The notes below the pieces were generated by a model. The model was not told the DNA's origin. It ran no database searches and saw only the letters and a list, made by a program, of their open reading frames with translations. A program made the position numbers and the translations under genes. From sequence record KP869112: a stretch of DNA of 64,000 nucleotides; one strand, given 5' to 3'. The stretch's first letter is position 1; each line of letters starts with the position of its first letter. The stretch comes from Escherichia coli O157 typing phage 14. Below are positions 14,924-51,684 of the stretch, piece by piece.

Positions 14924-14950
14924 AAGAGGGGGGGCTTAGGCCCCTCTTTT
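14924..14950 (+). terminator. rho-independent terminator
   Basis: AAGAGGGG...CCCCTCTT hairpin followed by T tract. Confidence 0.6.
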
Positions 14951-29261: not shown

Positions 29262-29946
29262 AAATTTATCCTCTTTACTGGTTAGTGCGGTGTTGTTCAC
29301 CTTGTAGGGTAATAATACCATGATTAACCTTGTTGTCAACGACTATTTTAAATTATTTTTATGATAGAATCCACCTGCCGCCCCCGCCAGGTTAACCACC
29401 ATTTTTTCGTACTCTTCTTTATGTTCCAACGCTCCCGCCATAGCCTTTTCAACCAGGGCGATAGCCTCAGCGTCATTAATCGCTACATTTTCCAGGGGAT
29501 CATATTACCTTTCATTTTTGTACCTCCTCTCCAGTTGTTGCCTACCCTATAGCATAGCCCTACCAGGTTTGCAAGCTTTCACTCTCCCCTGCCAGGCTGG
29601 CCCCGCCAGGTCCTGGCAGTGGGCGCACCTGGTTATAATTTTTTTTTTGAAAGGTGTTGACAGCGGCCCCGCCAGGTGGCACAATATACCTATCGAAAGG
29701 ACGGCAGGCACCGGTGACGGGGGAGACAACCACCGGGGATGGGCGCTGCATAAAATGAGAACGGTTATCATTATCATTTAAAAATTTATGCAAAAAATCC
29801 TTGCTTTCTTTGTCCTGTGTGATACTATAATAACAAGCCGGGGCAACAGGGGCCGGGAGACAATCACCGGGCCTGCCCGTTATTCTGCAAACGAGAATGA
29901 TTATCATTCAAAATTCTAAATGAGAACTCCTCACATTTAATAAATT

Positions 29947-41295: not shown

Positions 41296-43374
41296 TTAAA
41301 AAGGTGTTTCATCATCCTCAAAACCAGGAACATGGTCAGAGGACGGATCATCGTACTGGAGGTCTTCCTGCGTGTCAACAGGCTTAACAGTAGGAGTTAC
41401 AACCTTATCAGCCACAACCTTGCCCATAGGTGTTTCTACAACTGCATGCTCCTGATCCTCAAACATAGCCTGAGGTCTCCAAACAACCTCCCCACCTTCT
41501 CCATCTGTAAACATTTGCATTTCTTTGTCCCAGTACCAATTACTGGCATCATGGAACTTACCTGTATGTGGGTCCATAACCAAAGTGTCTGCAATACCCA
41601 ATGTTTTTGCTGGACGGTTTTTAAGACCTACTAAACGGACACGCCCACGAGAACGATCCACCATTTCTTCGGCCTCGACACCTATGACTACCCAACTCAA
41701 CTGTTCAAGCCCAGCCGATCCTCGCAAATTCTCTTTTCGCACAGGATACCAGAAAGGTAACGGGTTACCATCCTTGTCTTTAGGAGGCACAATCTCTGTA
41801 CGTTTGAGGTGAGCGATCACCAAGATAAACACATTAAACTGCTTACAAAACGCAGCCAGTTGGGTCATAGCTATGTCCAGTTCTTTTCGCTCATCCTTAA
41901 CATTAAGACCTGAAATTACCATGGACAGGTGATCCAGCACAATATAACGACAATGGTACAGGCAAACCATTTGCTTAAGCTTGGTAATCAACTCGTCCAC
42001 CGGAATAGATCCGAAATGTTTGAACACTTTGATTTTTCCAGCTTTTGCCCATGATTGGTGAATCTCTGCGTGTTCTTGATCAGTTAAAAACTGGCTAGGA
42101 TCTTCAACAAACTCTTTAACATCAAACCCTAACTGGTTTGCATACAAGGAGTTAATTGCTTCCTCTGGGTCCTCCTCAAGATGGATCATGCATAGACGAT
42201 CATCCTCTTCGTAGTCATCGGCCTTCGGGCATGTCGGGTCCATCAAGTATCTTGCAATACAATGTTCCAGTTTTTTAGCTACAGTTGTTTTACCGCCCCC
42301 TGATGGCCCTGTAAGCATTACGAGTGTCCCTTTGTGCAAGCCTTTTAGCATTTTTTGCAGTTTTGGGAACTCTGCACTGATATCTACCCCGTTGGAAGTC
42401 TTTTTCCGCAAAGACTCGATAGAGAAGTCTTCTAAATCCGACACAGCATCAGGCACATATTTAACAGGGTGCCGGAACATGTTGACAATATCTTCCAGCT
42501 TTTTAGCCTTCAGCATGTCTCGGATATCTTTTACACCGTCAGGGTCATTTACTTCACCAGGGTATTCTACGTGGTAAACGTTATCAGCCATCAAAAATGC
42601 TGCGATATTGTGCGTGGCCTCAACACCTTTAATGACGTGTTTTTGCTTCTCTACCTCGTTAGCTGCATCGTTATCCATTGCCAGCACAACTGTTCCATAG
42701 CTACGGATAAACTTCTCATTGTTTGCAAAAGTATCTACTGCGTTTGCACATCCACAGTTAATTCCAACAAAAGGCAGGCAGGGTTTTCCTGCCAGATCAC
42801 CACCGTTGATAACTGCGTCGATCCCGTCCTGGACCTCTTTAGCCCACTGCTTCACCTTTGCCGGGGCTTTAGCGTTGGTGAGAATCCCTTTTACTTGTAT
42901 CTGATATGCAGCCTGCCATGCTGCAATAACATCACCTTCTCCCTCACAAACGTTAATCTGCTTACGGTTGTTGGAAGATGCACACAGCTTTTGACCAAAC
43001 ATCTGGGAGTTGGCCTTTACGATGCCAACAACGGAGAAATGGCCCCTTTGCTCTTTAGGAATAGTCCAGTCACGCTTTTTGAAACCAGACAGATTTCCAT
43101 AGCGGTCGTAATATGGGAAATATGTTGCAGTGACTGTCACACCGTCTTCTTGGGACAATGCTGATCGCACACCAAAATATTGTGCAGCCATAAGACCGAT
43201 ATTTTGTTGTGGGACAGGGACAATTTTAGTATTTTCTAAAACAGTCTCTACAGTTTCAACTTCTTTTTCATCACGATAGTCTCGTTTCACACTTCCCCCA
43301 CTTTTATACTTAGTTGCTTTCGGGTTTGGCTCACCGAAACGGTTGTATGCAGATGCCATAAATTTACTTCCCAT
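41296..43374 (-). CDS. bifunctional primase-helicase (Toprim plus DnaB-like helicase)
   Basis: Walker A LTGPSGGGKTT, Walker B-like, N-terminal EGEGD Toprim-like motif; immediately upstream of the polymerase gene. Confidence 0.75.
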   Translation of the reverse strand: MGSKFMASAYNRFGEPNPKATKYKSGGSVKRDYRDEKEVETVETVLENTKIVPVPQQNIGLMAAQYFGVRSALSQEDGVTVTATYFPYYDRYGNLSGFKKRDWTIPKEQRGHFSVVGIVKANSQMFGQKLCASSNNRKQINVCEGEGDVIAAWQAAYQIQVKGILTNAKAPAKVKQWAKEVQDGIDAVINGGDLAGKPCLPFVGINCGCANAVDTFANNEKFIRSYGTVVLAMDNDAANEVEKQKHVIKGVEATHNIAAFLMADNVYHVEYPGEVNDPDGVKDIRDMLKAKKLEDIVNMFRHPVKYVPDAVSDLEDFSIESLRKKTSNGVDISAEFPKLQKMLKGLHKGTLVMLTGPSGGGKTTVAKKLEHCIARYLMDPTCPKADDYEEDDRLCMIHLEEDPEEAINSLYANQLGFDVKEFVEDPSQFLTDQEHAEIHQSWAKAGKIKVFKHFGSIPVDELITKLKQMVCLYHCRYIVLDHLSMVISGLNVKDERKELDIAMTQLAAFCKQFNVFILVIAHLKRTEIVPPKDKDGNPLPFWYPVRKENLRGSAGLEQLSWVVIGVEAEEMVDRSRGRVRLVGLKNRPAKTLGIADTLVMDPHTGKFHDASNWYWDKEMQMFTDGEGGEVVWRPQAMFEDQEHAVVETPMGKVVADKVVTPTVKPVDTQEDLQYDDPSSDHVPGFEDDETPF

Positions 43375-44158
43375 TAATTCTGCTCCTTACTACAGGCTCG
43401 TTTGCTAAGAATACGGCTTTTGCCCAGCCACGTGGTGTGAGGCTTCGGATCATCTTCGTTCTTGCACTCTTTCCACCCAGCTTGGCGTGTTGCATGGAAT
43501 ACCCGCTAACCGCGTCAACTATTTGCGGGACAGGTTTTGTGGCCGGGATTATAAATCCATTACCTATCCAGCCGCAAGTTATTTTTGGATAGGCATCACG
43601 TGGAGCTATAAATTCAGGAAACCAAGGGTTTACATCATCCTCCGGTAAATACCCGCCATAGTCAGAAGGATGAAAACGGTAATCAGGTTTGCGCCACAGT
43701 GTGGACATAACACCAACAGGATTCTCTACATGCCACGGGCAATCGTAAATCTCTCCCAGCTCTTCCGCAACCCGAGCATCCTTTACAGCATTAATTTGGA
43801 TCATGGGGTCCTTAGCCAGCTTTTTCTTAAAATGTGCAGCACCTGATACCGCTAAATGCGTGCACGGAGGAAATGCAAGAATAAAGTCTGGGGCTGGGTA
43901 CATGCAAAAAGTTTCCTGAGGGAACCATGGGTCAATCCAATAATCCACATAGTGGATGTTGGGATGATCGGTTATCACCTCTGCATAACTGCCGTGATCA
44001 GCACCTTCTGCATTGAAGCATAGGCACAGGTACCCAGCTTTTGCCCAGTCAATGACTGCACCACCAGACCCGTCAAATAGACTCCACACAACACCTTTGT
44101 GGTGGTGTTCTTTGTAGATAAATTTCAATTTGCTGTCTCCTAATGCAAAAAGCCCCAC
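43364..44158 (-). CDS. DNA cytosine-5 methyltransferase-like protein (divergent)
   Basis: LFDGSGG (motif I-like), FPPCTHLAVSG (PC catalytic motif IV-like), VENPVG (ENV motif VI). Confidence 0.5.
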   Translation of the reverse strand: MGLFALGDSKLKFIYKEHHHKGVVWSLFDGSGGAVIDWAKAGYLCLCFNAEGADHGSYAEVITDHPNIHYVDYWIDPWFPQETFCMYPAPDFILAFPPCTHLAVSGAAHFKKKLAKDPMIQINAVKDARVAEELGEIYDCPWHVENPVGVMSTLWRKPDYRFHPSDYGGYLPEDDVNPWFPEFIAPRDAYPKITCGWIGNGFIIPATKPVPQIVDAVSGYSMQHAKLGGKSARTKMIRSLTPRGWAKAVFLANEPVVRSRINGK

Positions 44159-44179
44159 CCTTTCGGGCAGGGCCTAGTG

Positions 44180-44662
44180 TTAAACCCGGATACCTATTGT
44201 ATACTCGGTGGATACCAATGTCAAATCTAAATTTAAAATTTCTTGCATCTCATAGTATGCGTCCAGGGTGAGATACATTTCCCCATCCTTTTCTACATAC
44301 TTGTCCAAGTGCTTGAGGCATTTCGGATAACTATCGAGTGCAGCTTTCAGACACTCAAACTCTGTGCTGTTGATGAGTCCTTCCATCTTGGCTACCCGTT
44401 CTGGGGTAACGATAGCACTGTAGTGAGATTTAGCTTCCTGAATGCAATGGGTCCAAGCATCAACTTTCTCTTCGAAAAGTCCGAAGAATTTCTTTTTGGT
44501 GAGCTTCAGATTCTTTAAGTGCTTAAGCACTCGGTTGCCGATCACAGCCACATCACGAAACTTAAGGATCACTTTGTCGATATCCTCGCGGCCTATTTTC
44601 ACAAAGCAAGCCTCACACATTTCAGGAGCTGCGTAACCTACTTTCCACATAAAATCTGACAT
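44180..44662 (-). CDS. hypothetical protein (160 aa)
   Basis: ORF in minus array. Confidence 0.5.
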   Translation of the reverse strand: MSDFMWKVGYAAPEMCEACFVKIGREDIDKVILKFRDVAVIGNRVLKHLKNLKLTKKKFFGLFEEKVDAWTHCIQEAKSHYSAIVTPERVAKMEGLINSTEFECLKAALDSYPKCLKHLDKYVEKDGEMYLTLDAYYEMQEILNLDLTLVSTEYTIGIRV

Positions 44663-44674
44663 AACACTATCTCC

Positions 44675-45073
44675 TTATTCTTCCTGAAAAGCAACGATAT
44701 CATATGAACTTGCAGACGATCCTGGTGAAGAATGACTCCAGTCTAGGTCATCAGAGTAGTCAGCGTACTGTGCACCACTACGTAGTTTATATTTTACCCA
44801 CTTACCTGGTGCAGGGTTTTCACCACCTTCCCATACTTCCCAGCCTTCTGGCAGGCCGTCCTGGGGATAGTCATCCACCTCACTAATAATCTTAGGGTTT
44901 GGCACCAAGATCCCTGCAGGCTCTTCCTTACGGATAAGTGTCCACACAACGTAGGTGTCTGAGCAGGCGCATGATAGCAAAGTATATCCACTATTCAGAA
45001 CTTCTGCAAGCTCTTTTTCAGCATCTTCCAATTTGGTTAAGTGGTATTGGATAACCTTCACACCTGTAATCAT
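44675..45073 (-). CDS. hypothetical protein (132 aa)
   Basis: ORF in minus array. Confidence 0.5.
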   Translation of the reverse strand: MITGVKVIQYHLTKLEDAEKELAEVLNSGYTLLSCACSDTYVVWTLIRKEEPAGILVPNPKIISEVDDYPQDGLPEGWEVWEGGENPAPGKWVKYKLRSGAQYADYSDDLDWSHSSPGSSASSYDIVAFQEE

Positions 45074-45378
45074 CAGAAACCTCCCACTTCTTCAGCAAAT
45101 GCAGCTGCTGTCGTCGCTGCATCCAGATAGGACTCTAGTTCACGGGCTGCACGTTTGTAAATTGAGTGTCGCAAATCGTTTGGCAGTTGGTGGAAGTCCA
45201 CCTCTTCACCGTTGTGGTAAACATGCACATCGGTGATTTGTCTAAATCCGTAACAGTCAACATCAGAATCCCGGCACTCCGGATCTGGCAACTGAACAAC
45301 TGCCTGAGCTTCCACAGTAAACATATCGTCAAGTTCGAAATCGATTTCAAAAGTGTATGGTTTATAACGTTTCATCAT
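45073..45378 (-). CDS. hypothetical protein (101 aa)
   Basis: ORF overlapping junction. Confidence 0.5.
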   Translation of the reverse strand: MMKRYKPYTFEIDFELDDMFTVEAQAVVQLPDPECRDSDVDCYGFRQITDVHVYHNGEEVDFHQLPNDLRHSIYKRAARELESYLDAATTAAAFAEEVGGF

Positions 45379-45391
45379 TTGATTGTACTCT

Positions 45392-45676
45392 TTATTGATC
45401 AGAATTATCTTTCGTAATTAAGGTCTGGGTAAGTTTGTAATAGCGGAAGCCACCGCCACCTTGCCAGCTTGCAGACTTAGAAATACCACCTTGATCTTCA
45501 CCATCAATCACTTTTTGCAAGCGAGGGATAATATGGGTATGACAATGATCACCCAGTTCGATCAAGATCCAACGTCTTTTCATCTTGTGGGCTACAGCAG
45601 CAGTAGTTCCCGAACCGCCGAATGAATCCAATACCAAATCACCTTCTCGCGTACACATTTCGAGAATCCGCTTCAA
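45392..45676 (-). CDS. C-terminal segment of split N6-adenine/N4-cytosine DNA methyltransferase (SAM-binding motif I)
   Basis: Frame contains WKKPEALLKRILEMCTREGDLVLDSFGGSGTT (FxGxG SAM-binding motif); no plausible independent start. Confidence 0.5.
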   Translation of the reverse strand: MKRILEMCTREGDLVLDSFGGSGTTAAVAHKMKRRWILIELGDHCHTHIIPRLQKVIDGEDQGGISKSASWQGGGGFRYYKLTQTLITKDNSDQ

Positions 45677-46716
45677 AAGCGCTTCTGGTTTTTTCCATTT
45701 TTGAAACTAACGCCGCCTTCATTTGCTATTCCATTCCAACTAATGTCTGTCCAAACATCAGTTATTAGTTCCGCAGGTCGCATCTCACCGTCAATTTCCA
45801 AAAGCCTGTTGGAGTAAAAGACCATTTGCCTACCATTTGCGATATAAAATCCTTCAACATCCTCATTCGGATGTACATAAACCTTATCCCTATCTTTCTT
45901 TGACTTCTCGATAGTTTCTTTTCTCTTTATTTTAGCGCCACCACCAATTGCAACAGATTGAAATACACGTTCTGCATTATCAATTGCGAATTGTGCTAAT
46001 TCATCATCGAATGTGTCAGGCAGTTTTTTCTTAGCTTCTTTTGCATCTTTATAGCCATTGGCCTTTGCAAACGCATCGGCAATACCGCACCACGTCCAAT
46101 TTTTATAATGGTCATCCGGGTTTAATAGGTATTTGTTATATCCTGTATCATACCCTTTAGGTATATAGATTTTGTTAAGCGGTTTCTGGGTGCGATCTTT
46201 TGCATATACAAGCAAAAAGTTTGCTGTGGAGAAAACTGTGGCTCCTGTTGCCTTAAATCCCGAAGGGAAATTTGTGGTCATCGATATGGTATTTAACTGA
46301 TTTGCACGACCAAAAATCTCGTCCATCAAAACTTTTAAATACGCCATTTCGCAATCATCTAAGTGAACGAATATTACCCCATCATCACTTAGAAGATTAC
46401 GAATTATTTCTAACCTATCCCTCATTAAGCCCAGCCAAACGGAATGCTCCAGGCTATCATCGTAGTGCTCAAAAGCCCTCCCGGTATTGAATGGTGGGTC
46501 TATGTAAACACACTTCACTTTGCCTGCATACTCTTGCTCTAGCGCCTTCAATGCTAATAAGTTATCTCCAAAAATCAGTTTATTATCAAAAATATCGTTT
46601 TCGGTCACTTTCTGGCTGTGGTAAGACTTGCTAGAATCTTCTAACAAAATGTGCTGCTCTAACTTTTTGCGCTCGTTTTTACCTATCCAGGTAAGTTCTA
46701 ATTTGGTTTTACTCAT
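45673..46716 (-). CDS. N-terminal segment of split beta-class DNA methyltransferase (DPPF catalytic motif)
   Basis: VYIDPPFNTG motif IV; ends 4 nt into the downstream frame carrying motif I. Confidence 0.6.
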   Translation of the reverse strand: MSKTKLELTWIGKNERKKLEQHILLEDSSKSYHSQKVTENDIFDNKLIFGDNLLALKALEQEYAGKVKCVYIDPPFNTGRAFEHYDDSLEHSVWLGLMRDRLEIIRNLLSDDGVIFVHLDDCEMAYLKVLMDEIFGRANQLNTISMTTNFPSGFKATGATVFSTANFLLVYAKDRTQKPLNKIYIPKGYDTGYNKYLLNPDDHYKNWTWCGIADAFAKANGYKDAKEAKKKLPDTFDDELAQFAIDNAERVFQSVAIGGGAKIKRKETIEKSKKDRDKVYVHPNEDVEGFYIANGRQMVFYSNRLLEIDGEMRPAELITDVWTDISWNGIANEGGVSFKNGKNQKRF

Positions 46717-46774
46717 CGTTTGGTGCTCTCCTTAGTTTTTGTGGGGAGGAGTGCCTCCCCTTTATACTCACATC

Positions 46775-47119
46775 TTACTGCTCAAGGTCTTCAGAGTCAA
46801 GCTCAAAAAGAATCAAACTGTGCATGCCTGCAGAGAGATCAACACACCCTGCAACAATAAGGGTTTGATAGTAAGGTTCAGCACCCTCAATGTCTTCGTT
46901 AAAATCCACAACAAGGTAGTCACCTTTGTTAAAGGTGTATTTGTCCGATGTAAACGCAAAACCTGCCCAGTCCCCTACTGCAGGATCTTTATCAGTCACC
47001 TTTGTTAGCAGTAGATCTTTTTCACGAGATCTTTTAGTAAAATCGTGAATCACAACATCCTTCTCTTCAGGAGTTGGATTGCCGCACACGTAGTTAACGA
47101 TATTTCTCCACAAACTCAT
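46775..47119 (-). CDS. hypothetical protein (114 aa)
   Basis: 4-nt overlap with helicase gene. Confidence 0.5.
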   Translation of the reverse strand: MSLWRNIVNYVCGNPTPEEKDVVIHDFTKRSREKDLLLTKVTDKDPAVGDWAGFAFTSDKYTFNKGDYLVVDFNEDIEGAEPYYQTLIVAGCVDLSAGMHSLILFELDSEDLEQ

Positions 47120-48486
47120 ACGTCCCCCTCTTCTGCTCTGGTTTCAAAATCTTTCCTGACAATTTTGTCTAAGTCAGGGAATGTTGTATTGTAAAACTCT
47201 ACGACTCGCGGGTCAACAATAATGTCAACCTCTCTTAGTGGACGCAACAAGTTTATTCCTTGTATTGTCTTAACTCTACTCAAAGCGACATACGTCATCC
47301 CAGGAGAGAAAGCTCCGTTCTTTCCAAGGTCTAGGTTGTAACAATCTAGTGTAAGTCCTTGACTTTTATGAGATGTTACGGCGTACCCAGATTTCAGAGG
47401 AAGTTGCTTGTATGACCCAATCACTACCCTCTCTATAAACTTCTCCATCTTCCTTTCTGCAATGTTGTATCTCTGAGATGGCTTATACTCGTTATTCTCC
47501 CACAACCTCTGCTCTATGTCAACCTGTGTTCCATCTTCAAGCTCTACCACCACCGCCTTGTTCTTAAATTTAACAATTGTAGCACGTGTTCCGTTAACAT
47601 AATAAGGTACTTTGTGCGTCGGGTCAACATCGTTGGCGGTTATCATAACTTTCATGCCAATTTTCAACTTCATCTCCTGCTCAACTGGCAGGGTGGAGGG
47701 AAACTTACCCTTCATTTCACCAGTGTATACCTTCTCTGGGGCGTTGATGGCATCATAGAACCTTCTGTTCACTTCCTCTGCTTGTTTGTTGGTGGCGCAA
47801 ATTGTGAGAGCGTCTGTTGGTACACCTCCTTTGTAACAGCGAGCATTAAGTTCTGCTACAACCTCTTTTATGCGACGACCCTCACGAACACAGTTGAGCA
47901 TTGTAGCAAATCGAACAGACTCCTGTCGGAACTGATCTATTAGGGCTATGTTGTGGAGGTCAAGCTCTTTCCAAGATTCGGTATAGCAACACAGGTCCGT
48001 ATGGTAGAAGTTGAAGTAGGCTTCCTTCTCCATAGAAGAGACAACAGGAGGTGCCTGGTAAAAATCGCCAAACAATATGACCTGTATGCCTCCGAAAGGT
48101 TTGTCATTTTTTCGAAGGAAGCGGAGTTTCCTATCCATCTCTATAAACTTATCAGCACGGATCATAGAGATTTCATCGATAATTAGGATGGTAAATGCCT
48201 TGCTTTTCAAAGGCTTTGCTGTTTTTGCCCTTATTGCGGTCCAGTCCGACTCCATGCTCACACCTGCTGCAAGATCGAAGGTTCGGTGTGCTGTTGCTCC
48301 ATTAACGTTTAAAGCGGCTACCCCTGTCGGGGCAACCGTTATGCAAGAGTCTCCATACATTGACTGGATCATGTTGATGAGGTACGTCTTCCCACAACCT
48401 GCGGGTCCTGAAACGAAGACATTCTCACCGCTCATGATTGCAACGAGGGCAGCATCTGTGCCTACATCATACTGCCCTTTTTCCAT
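47116..48486 (-). CDS. SF1 DNA helicase (Dda/RecD/PIF1-like)
   Basis: Walker A SGPAGCGKTY, Walker B ILIIDEISM, C-terminal SH3-like region typical of Dda-type helicases. Confidence 0.7.
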   Translation of the reverse strand: MEKGQYDVGTDAALVAIMSGENVFVSGPAGCGKTYLINMIQSMYGDSCITVAPTGVAALNVNGATAHRTFDLAAGVSMESDWTAIRAKTAKPLKSKAFTILIIDEISMIRADKFIEMDRKLRFLRKNDKPFGGIQVILFGDFYQAPPVVSSMEKEAYFNFYHTDLCCYTESWKELDLHNIALIDQFRQESVRFATMLNCVREGRRIKEVVAELNARCYKGGVPTDALTICATNKQAEEVNRRFYDAINAPEKVYTGEMKGKFPSTLPVEQEMKLKIGMKVMITANDVDPTHKVPYYVNGTRATIVKFKNKAVVVELEDGTQVDIEQRLWENNEYKPSQRYNIAERKMEKFIERVVIGSYKQLPLKSGYAVTSHKSQGLTLDCYNLDLGKNGAFSPGMTYVALSRVKTIQGINLLRPLREVDIIVDPRVVEFYNTTFPDLDKIVRKDFETRAEEGDV

Positions 48487-49691
48487 TACGCCTCCTCGTA
48501 AAGAATGTCGATAGTGTTACCGTCACGATCAACTACATATTCAATAGGGTCTCCATCTTTGCGTGCTTCCGGAGCTACCACAATCTCATAGCGGCATGCA
48601 CGGCACTTAGCGCTATTGTGTTGGTATGGCACACTAACCACATCTGCAGGATCAACCATAACAGTCATTACAGTGCCGTAGCTCTTTGCATACTCTTTGC
48701 TGGCGCAGTGTAAGCCATAGGAGCACGCAGCTTCCGGATCATCCTCTACAAAGTTACGAGGCATGGATACAAAAGCACCCTGGTATTGTGGAACTTTACC
48801 ACTGTGCCAATCCACCCACTTGCTGCCGTTAAACTGAACCCCTTTGTAGCAAATTATTCGACCATCTTCTGCAATCTGGATATCGTTGGCCTGCATAAAA
48901 TCGTAGAGCATGTTTACAGATTTTGCAGAAGGATTGCGTAGCAGGCGAACGAGGAATTTCACATAGCGGTCATCCAGCGTTCCGTCTGCATAATCTTTCT
49001 CAATTTTCTTTGCAATGGTGGATCGCATCTCTACACCGTAGTAGTAGAGCTTACCATCTTTCATGATCAGGTTGTCTGCAAGTGTGGTGAACTCATTCTT
49101 GCGTTCCAGCCAGACAAGGATTTCACCAATTGCCTCATCATATTCCTGAACAGAGATATGGTCGAAGACTTTCTGGTAAACTTCCTCACTTTCGCTGCGG
49201 CGAATTTCAAAAATGCCTTCGTTGCAGGTGATCTGGAGGAGTTCCCCACAAATAACTACCAAAGGCTCGATGCTTCGAGTCTGTTGCTGAGACACACTGC
49301 TCACCACCTCCAGCACCGGATCTTTGACTTCTACTAAAGGTTCTTCTGACTTGATTGCTACCCCAGTGAACCCCACACCGTGAACAACACACAGTGGGTA
49401 TACCACGCCCCAACGTTTAACGGAACCTTCGCCTAAATCTAAGATCATAGCGTACTTACCGTTATCTTCCAGACCGTATCGAAATAAACGGGCCTCTTCG
49501 CGGGTTTCAAAATCCTCACGGGTGTAGCAGACGCTGTCACGGTCAGGATCGAACAACTCTGGGGCACCAACTGCCAGTGTCCAGGTTGTGTCGCCTTTCT
49601 CAATGGCACATGTGAAACCCTTCTTCTCAAGTTCTGCACGGCGGTCTCGTGCTTCTTTACGGGTTTTGAAATGTTCGTAGATGAAAATCAT
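48486..49691 (-). CDS. hypothetical protein, possible rIIB-like by position
   Basis: Directly downstream of the rIIA-like GHKL ATPase gene in the same orientation, as in rIIA-rIIB pairs; no motif evidence. Confidence 0.3.
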   Translation of the reverse strand: MIFIYEHFKTRKEARDRRAELEKKGFTCAIEKGDTTWTLAVGAPELFDPDRDSVCYTREDFETREEARLFRYGLEDNGKYAMILDLGEGSVKRWGVVYPLCVVHGVGFTGVAIKSEEPLVEVKDPVLEVVSSVSQQQTRSIEPLVVICGELLQITCNEGIFEIRRSESEEVYQKVFDHISVQEYDEAIGEILVWLERKNEFTTLADNLIMKDGKLYYYGVEMRSTIAKKIEKDYADGTLDDRYVKFLVRLLRNPSAKSVNMLYDFMQANDIQIAEDGRIICYKGVQFNGSKWVDWHSGKVPQYQGAFVSMPRNFVEDDPEAACSYGLHCASKEYAKSYGTVMTVMVDPADVVSVPYQHNSAKCRACRYEIVVAPEARKDGDPIEYVVDRDGNTIDILYEEA

Positions 49692-49701
49692 CTTGGTCTC
49701 C

Positions 49702-51684
49702 TTATTTGATGTTATTCTTTGTATCGATCAGTTCACGGTATTCAATCATAGCAGGAGTGTCCCAATATTTCAAGCCCACATGCTTCAAAAGTGGATATTT
49801 CTTTTCCAATCTTGCAATATAGGCCTTCCCGCACTTAACCCGGTTGGCGATTAAGATTTTGGCACGATGATTTAGCTCACTGTGCTTCCACGCGGTGTTA
49901 CCTTCCCACTTGTGGAAATGTGGCCGATAATTTCCAAAATCCTGCATGGGGATAATTTTCCCTAATTGTCTATACAGGCTGTCATATGAAGTTTCATTTG
50001 CTGCGCGAGTCAGTAAGAATTTCCAAGCATCCTCTTTCAACAAATGTTCCACATTCTTCTCTGTAACATACTGGCAATCAGGATCAGTCCAAAGCAGACG
50101 AGATTCTGATACCAGGTACAGATCTTCACCTTCAGGAATCTGGAGTGCAGCACGCACACGGTCATAATTTTGCTGGTAGATGTTACTCATCTGGCCCAGC
50201 CAGCAGCTTCCCCGTTGGATATCCCCCTCATAAGGGATGCAATGCTTAATCTTCTTGAACTCTGCCTTCGTGAGGCGCTCACGATGGAAGTAGCCATCCT
50301 CTCTAAGCTTCTTAACCCAGTAGCCTGGCTCGTAACGAGTTTTGGTTTCACCTTTCTTCGCAGGTCGGCGTGGAAGCTCCGATAACAATTTGACCGTATC
50401 TGCAAAGAACGGATGGTGTGCCGCCTCTTTAAACTCTTTCACCAGATCCTTGTTCCGGCAATAGAAAACGTTGCGTCCGGTGATCTCGCTTAAGTAGTTA
50501 CACTTATTCCGGTTATATTTGCCGTCTCCGTCGTTAAATACAAGGTATACACCTCGTAAGAACTCCGACTTTCCGTAACGAGCATAGCCTATGCGGCCTT
50601 TATTTAAGCCGCCAGCGAAAATTTCACAATCGCCTAAGTCGCCAAGCCCTGTTTCTTCCCAACGGTTCCACATAAAGTTTTTGCCGAAGATGTGTCCGAA
50701 CACTCCACTGTTCTTCATCATCTCACGTGCTTCTGAGGATGTTTTTGCTGTCTCCAATTCCGCAACAACTTCTGCCCCACGAAGACGTATACCTTCTTTG
50801 ACAAAGGCCTCCAGGCGATCCTGGAATCCACCATCGTCGTGCCCCTCTATGGTCCATTCGCGCCCAGGGTTAATATTGCAATCCCCGATAGGGATCTCTA
50901 CACAGATTGCAGGGTAGTCTGTCAATGTTTCCAGAAACTTAGAGCGGTAAGGTTGGTGTCCCATCACCACACGGCTCTCATCAGAGCTGGTATAACCTTT
51001 CAGGATGGTCATTTTCCAACCATCTTTCTCGTAGTGATACTGCGCCTCAACCTTGTCACCTTCCAGCATCTTACTGGTCATAGGGTCGGTAACGGTAAAC
51101 GGAAACTTTGCATAGCGTAGGCATGACGCAATAGCAGTGCGATATTTCAGAACATGCTCTTTCTTAACATGGAACTGAACTTTTACCCCGTTGTGCTCTT
51201 CAGTCTTCCGCTCGCGGATCTTGGTAACGTTTGGGATACCCTGATCCAAGAACAACAGATATGTGCTTTCAACACCGTTGTGCACACTGATCACATCGAA
51301 AGTGTCCACCATGCTGAACGGGGCCTTTGAACCTACACCTTTATTACCTACCAGAGCGTTGCTGTTGCGCTTGGTTGACTCCCCGAGGTTCATGAAAGTG
51401 TTGCGGACCATCTCTTCCGACATGCCCAATCCAACGTCCTGCACAAAGAAGTATGGTTCAAGGTCTGTAGGAGAGTGAATGATGATCGGTACATCACCCC
51501 GTCCAGACTCAACATGGGAGTCCACAGCATTGAAGATTGGTTCACGGCAGCTTGCCAGCACCTTATCTTCGTAAATCCCTTTAATGATTAGCCCAAAAGT
51601 CTCTTTGTTCAGAGAAATTGAGCCCCTGGTGACCTCCATATTTCCGGTTAGTACTGCTTTAGTTTCATTACTGTTTACAATCAT
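49702..51684 (-). CDS. rIIA: GHKL-family ATPase, rIIA-like
   Basis: Bergerat-fold motifs EPIFNAVD (N box), DVGLGM (G1), GNKGVGSKAPF (G2) in N-terminal third of a 660 aa protein. Confidence 0.5.
   Translation of the reverse strand: MIVNSNETKAVLTGNMEVTRGSISLNKETFGLIIKGIYEDKVLASCREPIFNAVDSHVESGRGDVPIIIHSPTDLEPYFFVQDVGLGMSEEMVRNTFMNLGESTKRNSNALVGNKGVGSKAPFSMVDTFDVISVHNGVESTYLLFLDQGIPNVTKIRERKTEEHNGVKVQFHVKKEHVLKYRTAIASCLRYAKFPFTVTDPMTSKMLEGDKVEAQYHYEKDGWKMTILKGYTSSDESRVVMGHQPYRSKFLETLTDYPAICVEIPIGDCNINPGREWTIEGHDDGGFQDRLEAFVKEGIRLRGAEVVAELETAKTSSEAREMMKNSGVFGHIFGKNFMWNRWEETGLGDLGDCEIFAGGLNKGRIGYARYGKSEFLRGVYLVFNDGDGKYNRNKCNYLSEITGRNVFYCRNKDLVKEFKEAAHHPFFADTVKLLSELPRRPAKKGETKTRYEPGYWVKKLREDGYFHRERLTKAEFKKIKHCIPYEGDIQRGSCWLGQMSNIYQQNYDRVRAALQIPEGEDLYLVSESRLLWTDPDCQYVTEKNVEHLLKEDAWKFLLTRAANETSYDSLYRQLGKIIPMQDFGNYRPHFHKWEGNTAWKHSELNHRAKILIANRVKCGKAYIARLEKKYPLLKHVGLKYWDTPAMIEYRELIDTKNNIK

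Follow-up and report, generated by a model that had tools for sequence, protein, structure and literature searches.

The closest described relative of the gene considered here is ORF235 of phage rV5 (ABI79300.1, 'putative adenine methyltransferase'), an intact coding sequence (CDS) of 1326 nt that encodes 441 aa. In rV5 and its Vequintavirus orthologs, the gene lies between a PIF1-like helicase and a 114-aa open reading frame (ORF) on one side and a 101-aa ORF on the other. More distant relatives are the Mod proteins of Type III restriction-modification (R-M) systems, and bacterial Type III mod genes are classical phase-variable genes. Examples are the phasevarions of Haemophilus, Neisseria, and Helicobacter, where such a gene is turned OFF when a simple repeat inside its ORF changes in length. 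Programmed −1 frameshift sites, such as A_AAA_AAG in dnaX and those of insertion sequence (IS) transposases and phage tail-chaperone genes, place a slippery heptamer at an overlap where the shift yields a sensible fusion. The rV5 ORF235 counterpart in Escherichia coli O157 typing phage 14 (TP14), an rV5-like Vequintavirus, was analyzed in a 64,000-nt stretch of sequence record KP869112, called the window below. It occupies the same position as in rV5. Unlike rV5 ORF235, the TP14 copy lacks one A of an A7 run and is divided into ORFs of 347 aa and 94 aa. The methyltransferase gene is dispensable to the phage, and its TP14 allele has probably lost function through a genuine 1-nt slippage deletion (A7 to A6) in the TP14 stock.

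Features of the gene are listed in Table 1. GenBank lists the longer ORF (ORF1) as a 347-aa 'putative methyltransferase' (AKE47181.1), and the 94-aa ORF (ORF2) was not called. An original prediction, made from the nucleotide sequence, assigned the catalytic DPPF motif to ORF1 and the S-adenosylmethionine (AdoMet)-binding FGGSGTT motif to ORF2, and both motifs were located there. It also proposed a single methyltransferase gene divided by a 1-nt offset at a homopolymer, and profile matches bear this out. With a score cut-off of 26.7 bits, PF01555 (N6_N4_Mtase) matched ORF1 at profile positions 1–176 (E 6.7e-21, 75.7 bits) and ORF2 at positions 171–217 (E 7.2e-15, 56 bits). The −1-joined 441-aa sequence matched positions 1–216 of 221 with 146 bits. 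Because ORF1 and ORF2 match consecutive parts of the profile, they are, as judged from these matches, halves of one gene, and a chance pairing is ruled out. In the joined protein, DPPF (residues 73–76) is N-terminal to FGGSGTT (residues 366–372), the order that defines the beta class. Both the target-recognition region and motif IV are in the ORF1 part. One uninterrupted polypeptide carrying both motifs is encoded by rV5 and not by TP14.

The minus-strand junction reads GGA AAA AAC CAG AAG CGC TTT TGA. The ORF1 stop overlaps the TTG start of ORF2 (TTGA), and no Shine-Dalgarno sequence was seen before ORF2 in the sequence read directly. Residues K343–L347 of a conserved GKKPEALL segment are in neither the ORF1 nor the ORF2 product.

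Table 1. Coordinates of the split methyltransferase gene and its features in the TP14 window
Feature	Coordinates	Strand	Remarks
Whole frameshifted gene, orphan Type III Mod-like N6-adenine methyltransferase (predicted)	45392..46716	-	1325 nt; intact relatives 1326 nt / 441 aa
ORF1, 347 aa	45673..46716	-	Native residues 1-342, then out-of-frame NQKRF and TGA
ORF2, 94 aa	45392..45676	-	From TTG; native residues 348-441; contains AdoMet-binding motif I
Catalytic motif IV, DPPF	46489..46500	-	Codons 73-76, within YIDPPFNTG
Motif I, FGGSGTT (AdoMet binding)	45602..45622	-	Within DSFGGSGTT; -1 frame relative to ORF1
Shine-Dalgarno AAGGAG	46728..46733	-	11 nt 5' of the ATG at 46716; read from sequence
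Codon 150, TTC (Phe)	46267..46269	-	S150F; window-specific, nonsynonymous
Codon 313, CGA (Arg)	45778..45780	-	Q313R; window-specific, nonsynonymous; Gln in relatives
A6 homopolymer (T6 on + strand)	45689..45694	-	Site of 1-nt deletion; relatives GG-A7-CC or GGG-A6-CC
A_AAA_AAC heptamer in ORF1 frame	45688..45694	-	Candidate slippery site; read from sequence
Second A6 run	46024..46029	-	Codons ~229-231 (KKK); A5 and A8 frameshift alleles elsewhere (P0008, P0015)
Imperfect 11-nt tandem repeat	45820..45840	-	GCAAATGGTAG / GCAAATGGTC

Over a 1.5-kb region, TP14 DNA is 99.7% identical to rV5 and typing phage 5 (TP5) and ~97% identical to many other phages. The TP14 gene differs from rV5 ORF235 by two substitutions and one missing A. 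At the junction, rV5 and phage ime carry GG-A7-CC, phages nomo and ECO111 5-P carry GGG-A6-CC, and TP14 carries GG-A6-CC. A 90-nt junction query was matched by 74 phage records in a collection that lacks the TP14 record itself. None of the 74 was identical to the query, and 60 of 60 among the matches listed span 91 nt. The joined protein was used as a tblastn query and matched ~85 Vequintavirus records. Among the matches listed, 54 of 54 were in a single piece and 53 covered the full length, with EmilHeitz matching only from residue 42; no broken gene was found among these listed GenBank relatives. The exact A6-junction pattern had no match in IMG/VR, GTDB genomes, or JGI metagenomes; the in-frame pattern is likewise absent from IMG/VR, a collection without close relatives and so uninformative here. 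Both substitutions that separate TP14 from rV5 are nonsynonymous (Table 1), which fits relaxed constraint. Codon 150 encodes Ser in rV5 and in all other alleles read, including broken ones, and Asp in the host copy described below.

At least 16 of the matching records (MG065635–MG065690) are named 'Campylobacter phage' (host Campylobacter jejuni) and are ~97% identical to rV5-like coliphages in this region. The host label of these records looks doubtful, and they could be contaminating coliphages.

The best PDB relatives of the protein are Type III Mods, namely the Helicobacter pylori Mod 6k0w and the EcoP15I Mod 4zcf. A motif-level alignment to these solved structures places the break just 5′ of motif I. 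The intact rV5 version matched the PADLOC model MTase_III (PDLC03636) with 665 bits over positions 2–443 of 575. An E. coli chromosomal Mod of 567 aa matched the same model over positions 2–572; the phage protein thus lacks the full C-terminal Mod architecture. Homologs in a large protein collection are mostly ~570–600 aa. The E. coli Mod is 95% identical in protein sequence over phage residues 1–438 and then continues for ~130 further residues. In DNA, the host mod is 93.5% identical to the phage gene and has a GG-A7-CC tract at the same codons. An Acinetobacter homolog that is 71% identical keeps FKNGKKPEAL, with Lys343 conserved.

The host mod is directly followed by res (912 aa; REase_III, 634 bits). 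Of 5,426 complete E. coli genomes, 29 (0.5%) encode this cognate system; strains LS45 and APEC E16002 are examples of its carriers. All 24 of 24 close host mod copies are exactly 1,704 nt, and their tract is invariant, as expected where Res counter-selects loss of Mod. The phage has no adjacent res gene; its neighbors are those seen in rV5. Since the 95% Mod identity ends at residue 438 and no phage Res is present, homology indicates that the phage gene was copied from an E. coli Type III mod, is shortened at its C-terminal end, and stands as an orphan. It shares with the E. coli systems the Mod identity, the tract, and the MTase_III model. Unlike them, it has neither the C-terminal ~130 aa nor Res, and host copies are all intact.

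One host mod lies in a defense island (locus L012:1-12464; GCA_026236215.1, contig JAMTDA010000002.1). The gene order is an AlpA-like regulator, a 964-aa SNF2/ResIII helicase, Abi_2, AIPR, Mod (567 aa), Res (912 aa), and IS66 genes. A mod allele with only 88–89% identity over 61% of its length, possibly of different specificity, is present in five other E. coli genomes.

The missing base appears to be real. Typing phages 4 (TP4), 5, and 14 were sequenced together on an Illumina MiSeq with 150-bp paired-end reads and assembled with Velvet, in a report that is silent on the methyltransferase (Cowley et al. 2015; PMC4429339). TP4 and TP5 are in frame at the junction, as judged with the 90-nt query. 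A Logan re-assembly of run SRR1391173 contains the exact 347-aa ORF and is 100% identical to the window over 6,065 nt (43652–49716), A6 included. That SRR1391173 is the TP14 run was deduced only from this identity and the accession period, and a full-text search found no paper naming the run. The window was also compared with phage nomo over the conserved 31.6–59 kb, a 27-kb part that takes in the polymerase, primase-helicase, helicase, and rIIA/B genes. The sole uncompensated 1-nt indel inside an annotated CDS is at 45695. Because this is the only CDS indel in that part, the assembly has no general homopolymer-error problem, and a generic homopolymer error was rejected as an explanation.

A sequencing or assembly error that hides a true A7 and an intact gene, one of the options of the original prediction, is therefore very unlikely. 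A single homopolymer base is the commonest kind of consensus error, and the GenBank and Logan assemblies may share reads. This option is opposed by the high depth of the MiSeq data, the in-frame phages of the same run, the agreement of two different assemblers on A6, and the lack of other frameshifts in conserved genes. It is opposed as well by the two window-specific nonsynonymous changes that accompany the deletion, and by like alleles in unrelated runs that, to judge from their accession series, were submitted years apart.

Those alleles were found in other assemblies. The 94-aa ORF of TP14 is also present on contigs from SRR053014 and ERR11477985, both with GG-A6. Their genes are 1 substitution apart and 16–17 substitutions from the TP14 gene, compared with 2 for in-frame rV5. 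SRR24140670 carries GGG-A5, a deletion on a G3A6 background, and its gene is 39 substitutions from that of TP14; here the gene caller chose a different, 88-aa ORF. SRR33769039 carries GG-A8 and encodes a 389-aa product. At least four independent events have therefore affected the A tract: A7 to A6 twice, G3A6 to G3A5, and A7 to A8. ON tracts are A7 and G3A6, and OFF tracts are A6, G3A5, and A8, on different backgrounds.

Lesions elsewhere in the gene were also found. In a 138.9-kb rV5-like contig, ERZ26728922 (locus L011:2001-3029), DPPF is lost through an in-frame deletion of 297 nt; a 342-aa ORF remains, with its GGG-A6 tract in frame. A 90% cluster around the truncated protein supplied three more types of allele: A5 and A8 alleles of the second A6 run, a three-copy GCAAATGGTAG allele of the tandem repeat (P0012, 320 aa), and an A3-to-A2 deletion at the same repeat. 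The last is present in three diverged 316-aa variants on 12 contigs. In all, broken alleles comprise ~13 distinct sequences; clusters that are full-length as inspected have 334 and 64 members. The A tract is thus a site of recurrent mutation in a dispensable gene.

The 111–113-aa and 66-aa members of a helicase cluster were considered as helicase truncations and rejected, as they represent a neighboring small ORF and provide no control. Campylobacter phage CPt10 has a distant homolog of the methyltransferase with 40% identity (FN667789.1, 8028–9008), recorded as 'Type III Restriction Modification Methylase (pseudogene)'. CPt10 is a further phage with a Mod-like gene that its record treats as broken.

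Two other explanations keep the split gene functional. In one, programmed −1 frameshifting at A_AAA_AAC is the normal route to the full-length enzyme and the 347-aa product is a second functional form. The heptamer predicted at the junction is present, one position away from the 45687–45693 first given for it (Table 1). Read in the ORF1 frame, it formally fits the canonical X_XXY_YYZ pattern, and a shift to −1 leads on into the rest of the enzyme. The loss of a single A from the Lys-Lys codon run GGA AAA AAA CCA creates A_AAA_AAC, so the heptamer is an automatic by-product of the deletion, carries no independent signal, and is not evidence of recoding. Heptamers that end in AAC shift weakly in E. 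coli compared with those that end in AAG. A −1 shift would restore an enzyme of 441 aa, close to the ~440 aa predicted, but not its sequence: ribosomal slippage gives GK-N-PEALL rather than GK-K-PEALL, with Asn in place of the conserved Lys343, which is regained only through an extra A in the DNA or mRNA. A 5-bp hairpin (CGCUU-UUG-AAGCG) begins 6 nt downstream of the heptamer, yet the 67 nt downstream fold worse than shuffled sequences (−11.3 vs −13.6 ± 2.3 kcal/mol, z = +0.99), and the 10–14 nt upstream have no Shine-Dalgarno-like element. TP14 thus resembles dnaX and the other programmed sites in its heptamer at an overlap and its sensible fusion, and differs from them in that the arrangement is not conserved, stimulatory elements are lacking, and in relatives the joined protein is read from a single frame. 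Neither the host gene nor the Vequintavirus relatives (~85 matches, those listed being in frame) have the two-frame layout. Programmed frameshifting, which the original prediction had also offered, is unsupported and extremely improbable. In the other explanation, which is the least probable of those considered, reinitiation at TTGA would yield the 94-aa product after termination of the 347-aa one, and the two together would form an active enzyme. Methyltransferases that are split in nature are known, and a stop/start overlap of this kind can allow translational coupling. The arrangement here is derived and rare, ORF2 depends on a weak TTG start with no Shine-Dalgarno sequence, and residues K343–L347, just before motif I, are missing from both products. 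Nothing about ORF2 is conserved, as the G3A5 allele was called with a different 88-aa ORF.

Phase variation comes closest of the three options that had been predicted (programmed frameshifting, phase variation, or a sequencing indel), in that the tract does vary in length from A5 to A8; it is also short and invariant in hosts, and its broken alleles are rare. As a full explanation it is unlikely. The A tract would have come with the host Type III mod as a contingency switch between ON and OFF, and each lysate would hold both states. ON would be favored on hosts with the cognate Res, and OFF where the enzyme is costly or where methylation-dependent restriction attacks. Contraction and expansion at one tract in at least four independent events are in keeping with a switch, as is a homopolymer census of the window: it has 28 A6 and 22 T6 runs, no A7 or T7, one intergenic T10, and one G7, so that an rV5-type A7 here would be the only intragenic A/T run of ≥7. 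Seven bases is, however, short for a phase-variable homopolymer. Many relatives interrupt the run with GGG-A6, so a long tract is not maintained; the GenBank relatives listed (of ~85) are all ON; and the identical tract shows no variation among the 24 host copies. Irreversible lesions, among them the 297-nt deletion and the diversified A3-to-A2 lineage, give a pattern more like decay. The parallel with phasevarions extends to a Type III Mod-family gene turned OFF by a length change of a simple repeat within the ORF, and to relatives whose tracts are longer or shorter. It does not extend to the 6–7-base tract, the rarity of OFF alleles, the virulent phage carrier, or the invariant tract of the host homolog, and the assemblies compared gave no evidence of reversible switching within a population. 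Recurrent loss of function in a dispensable gene would explain the tract variation more simply than phase variation. A literature search found nothing on a frameshifted Vequintavirus methyltransferase or on phage-encoded phase-variable methyltransferases.

The loss-of-function explanation can be stated as a sequence of steps. The intact enzyme is predicted from homology to methylate phage DNA at the cognate Type III recognition site, and the few hosts that have the matching Res nuclease would thereby be open to the phage. Because the cognate host system is so rare, the gene would be only weakly maintained by selection. In TP14, replication slippage from A7 to A6 has put motif I in a different frame from motif IV and the target-recognition region, and translation ends after residue 342 and 5 aberrant residues. 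With these parts separated and K343–L347 lost, the enzyme would probably have little or no activity. Loss, by slippage at this tract and by other lesions, recurs in independent rV5-like lineages, and would come most easily at the longest homopolymer. In the BASEL study, Vequintavirinae were 'exceptionally susceptible' to the R-M systems tested (PMC8594841). Vequintavirinae methyltransferases evidently give no broad protection, and the proposed mechanism agrees with this susceptibility.

Several points weigh against a simple loss of function. Loss of activity is deduced from the separation of the motifs, and the protective role against a cognate Type III system from homology only. Should SRR1391173 be the TP14 run, both assemblies (GenBank and Logan) come from one set of reads and would have any read-level bias in common. 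A6 is known from assemblies, and a minority A7 sub-population may exist, through heterogeneity or switching. Some full-length protein could still arise if ribosomes or RNA polymerase slipped now and then on the A run, and the knockout would then be slightly leaky. The broken fraction, a few percent (~13 of ~430 distinct sequences), may also reflect positive selection for OFF rather than weak selection.

The result is mainly a point of annotation: AKE47181.1 and the uncalled 94-aa ORF are one frameshifted gene and contain no recoding site. The event is of an ordinary kind, in a modestly interesting evolutionary context. The rV5-like phages carry a recently captured, shortened E. coli Type III Mod, which offers a testable target for the protection given by an orphan methyltransferase. 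The gene has been lost repeatedly in independent lineages, mostly by slippage, and this fits a cognate system that only 0.5% of complete E. coli genomes have. The OFF allele of TP14, set against near-identical TP5 and rV5, is a candidate explanation for differing lysis patterns. A link between lysis pattern and the methyltransferase was not considered in the original typing-phage paper (PMC4429339), and the methyltransferase goes unmentioned in the rV5 genome paper. It is a doubtful further idea that a virulent phage uses a captured slippage-prone tract to hedge: some members of a population would methylate their own DNA and be shielded from the cognate Type III system, and others would not. 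In that case, the OFF state of TP14 would contribute to the difference of its lytic spectrum from those of TP4 and TP5 in the O157 phage-typing scheme, and phages that do not methylate would pay a lower cost or go unseen by methylation-dependent restriction.

A second orphan methyltransferase-like gene of 264 aa is encoded 1.2 kb downstream (43364–44158, minus strand), and its nomo ortholog is annotated 'Dcm'. In relatives, a 'putative N6 adenine methyltransferase' is annotated in the part that matches window positions 1–25000. From these annotations and the 264-aa gene, the phage therefore carries several methyltransferases.

The G7 run of the census is at 14928–14934, and the T10 run is in a divergent intergenic stretch at 29639–29648. 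Simple extrapolation from 5-mer and 6-mer counts gives ~10 expected A/T runs of ≥7; the observed number is much lower. This scarcity suggests selection against slippery runs in the phage. The stretch at 29380–29600, around a small hypothetical gene (nomo_61 ortholog) and adjoining the T10 run, is locally hypervariable relative to phage nomo, with C6 vs C5 and 24-nt, 9-nt, and 17-nt insertions or deletions.

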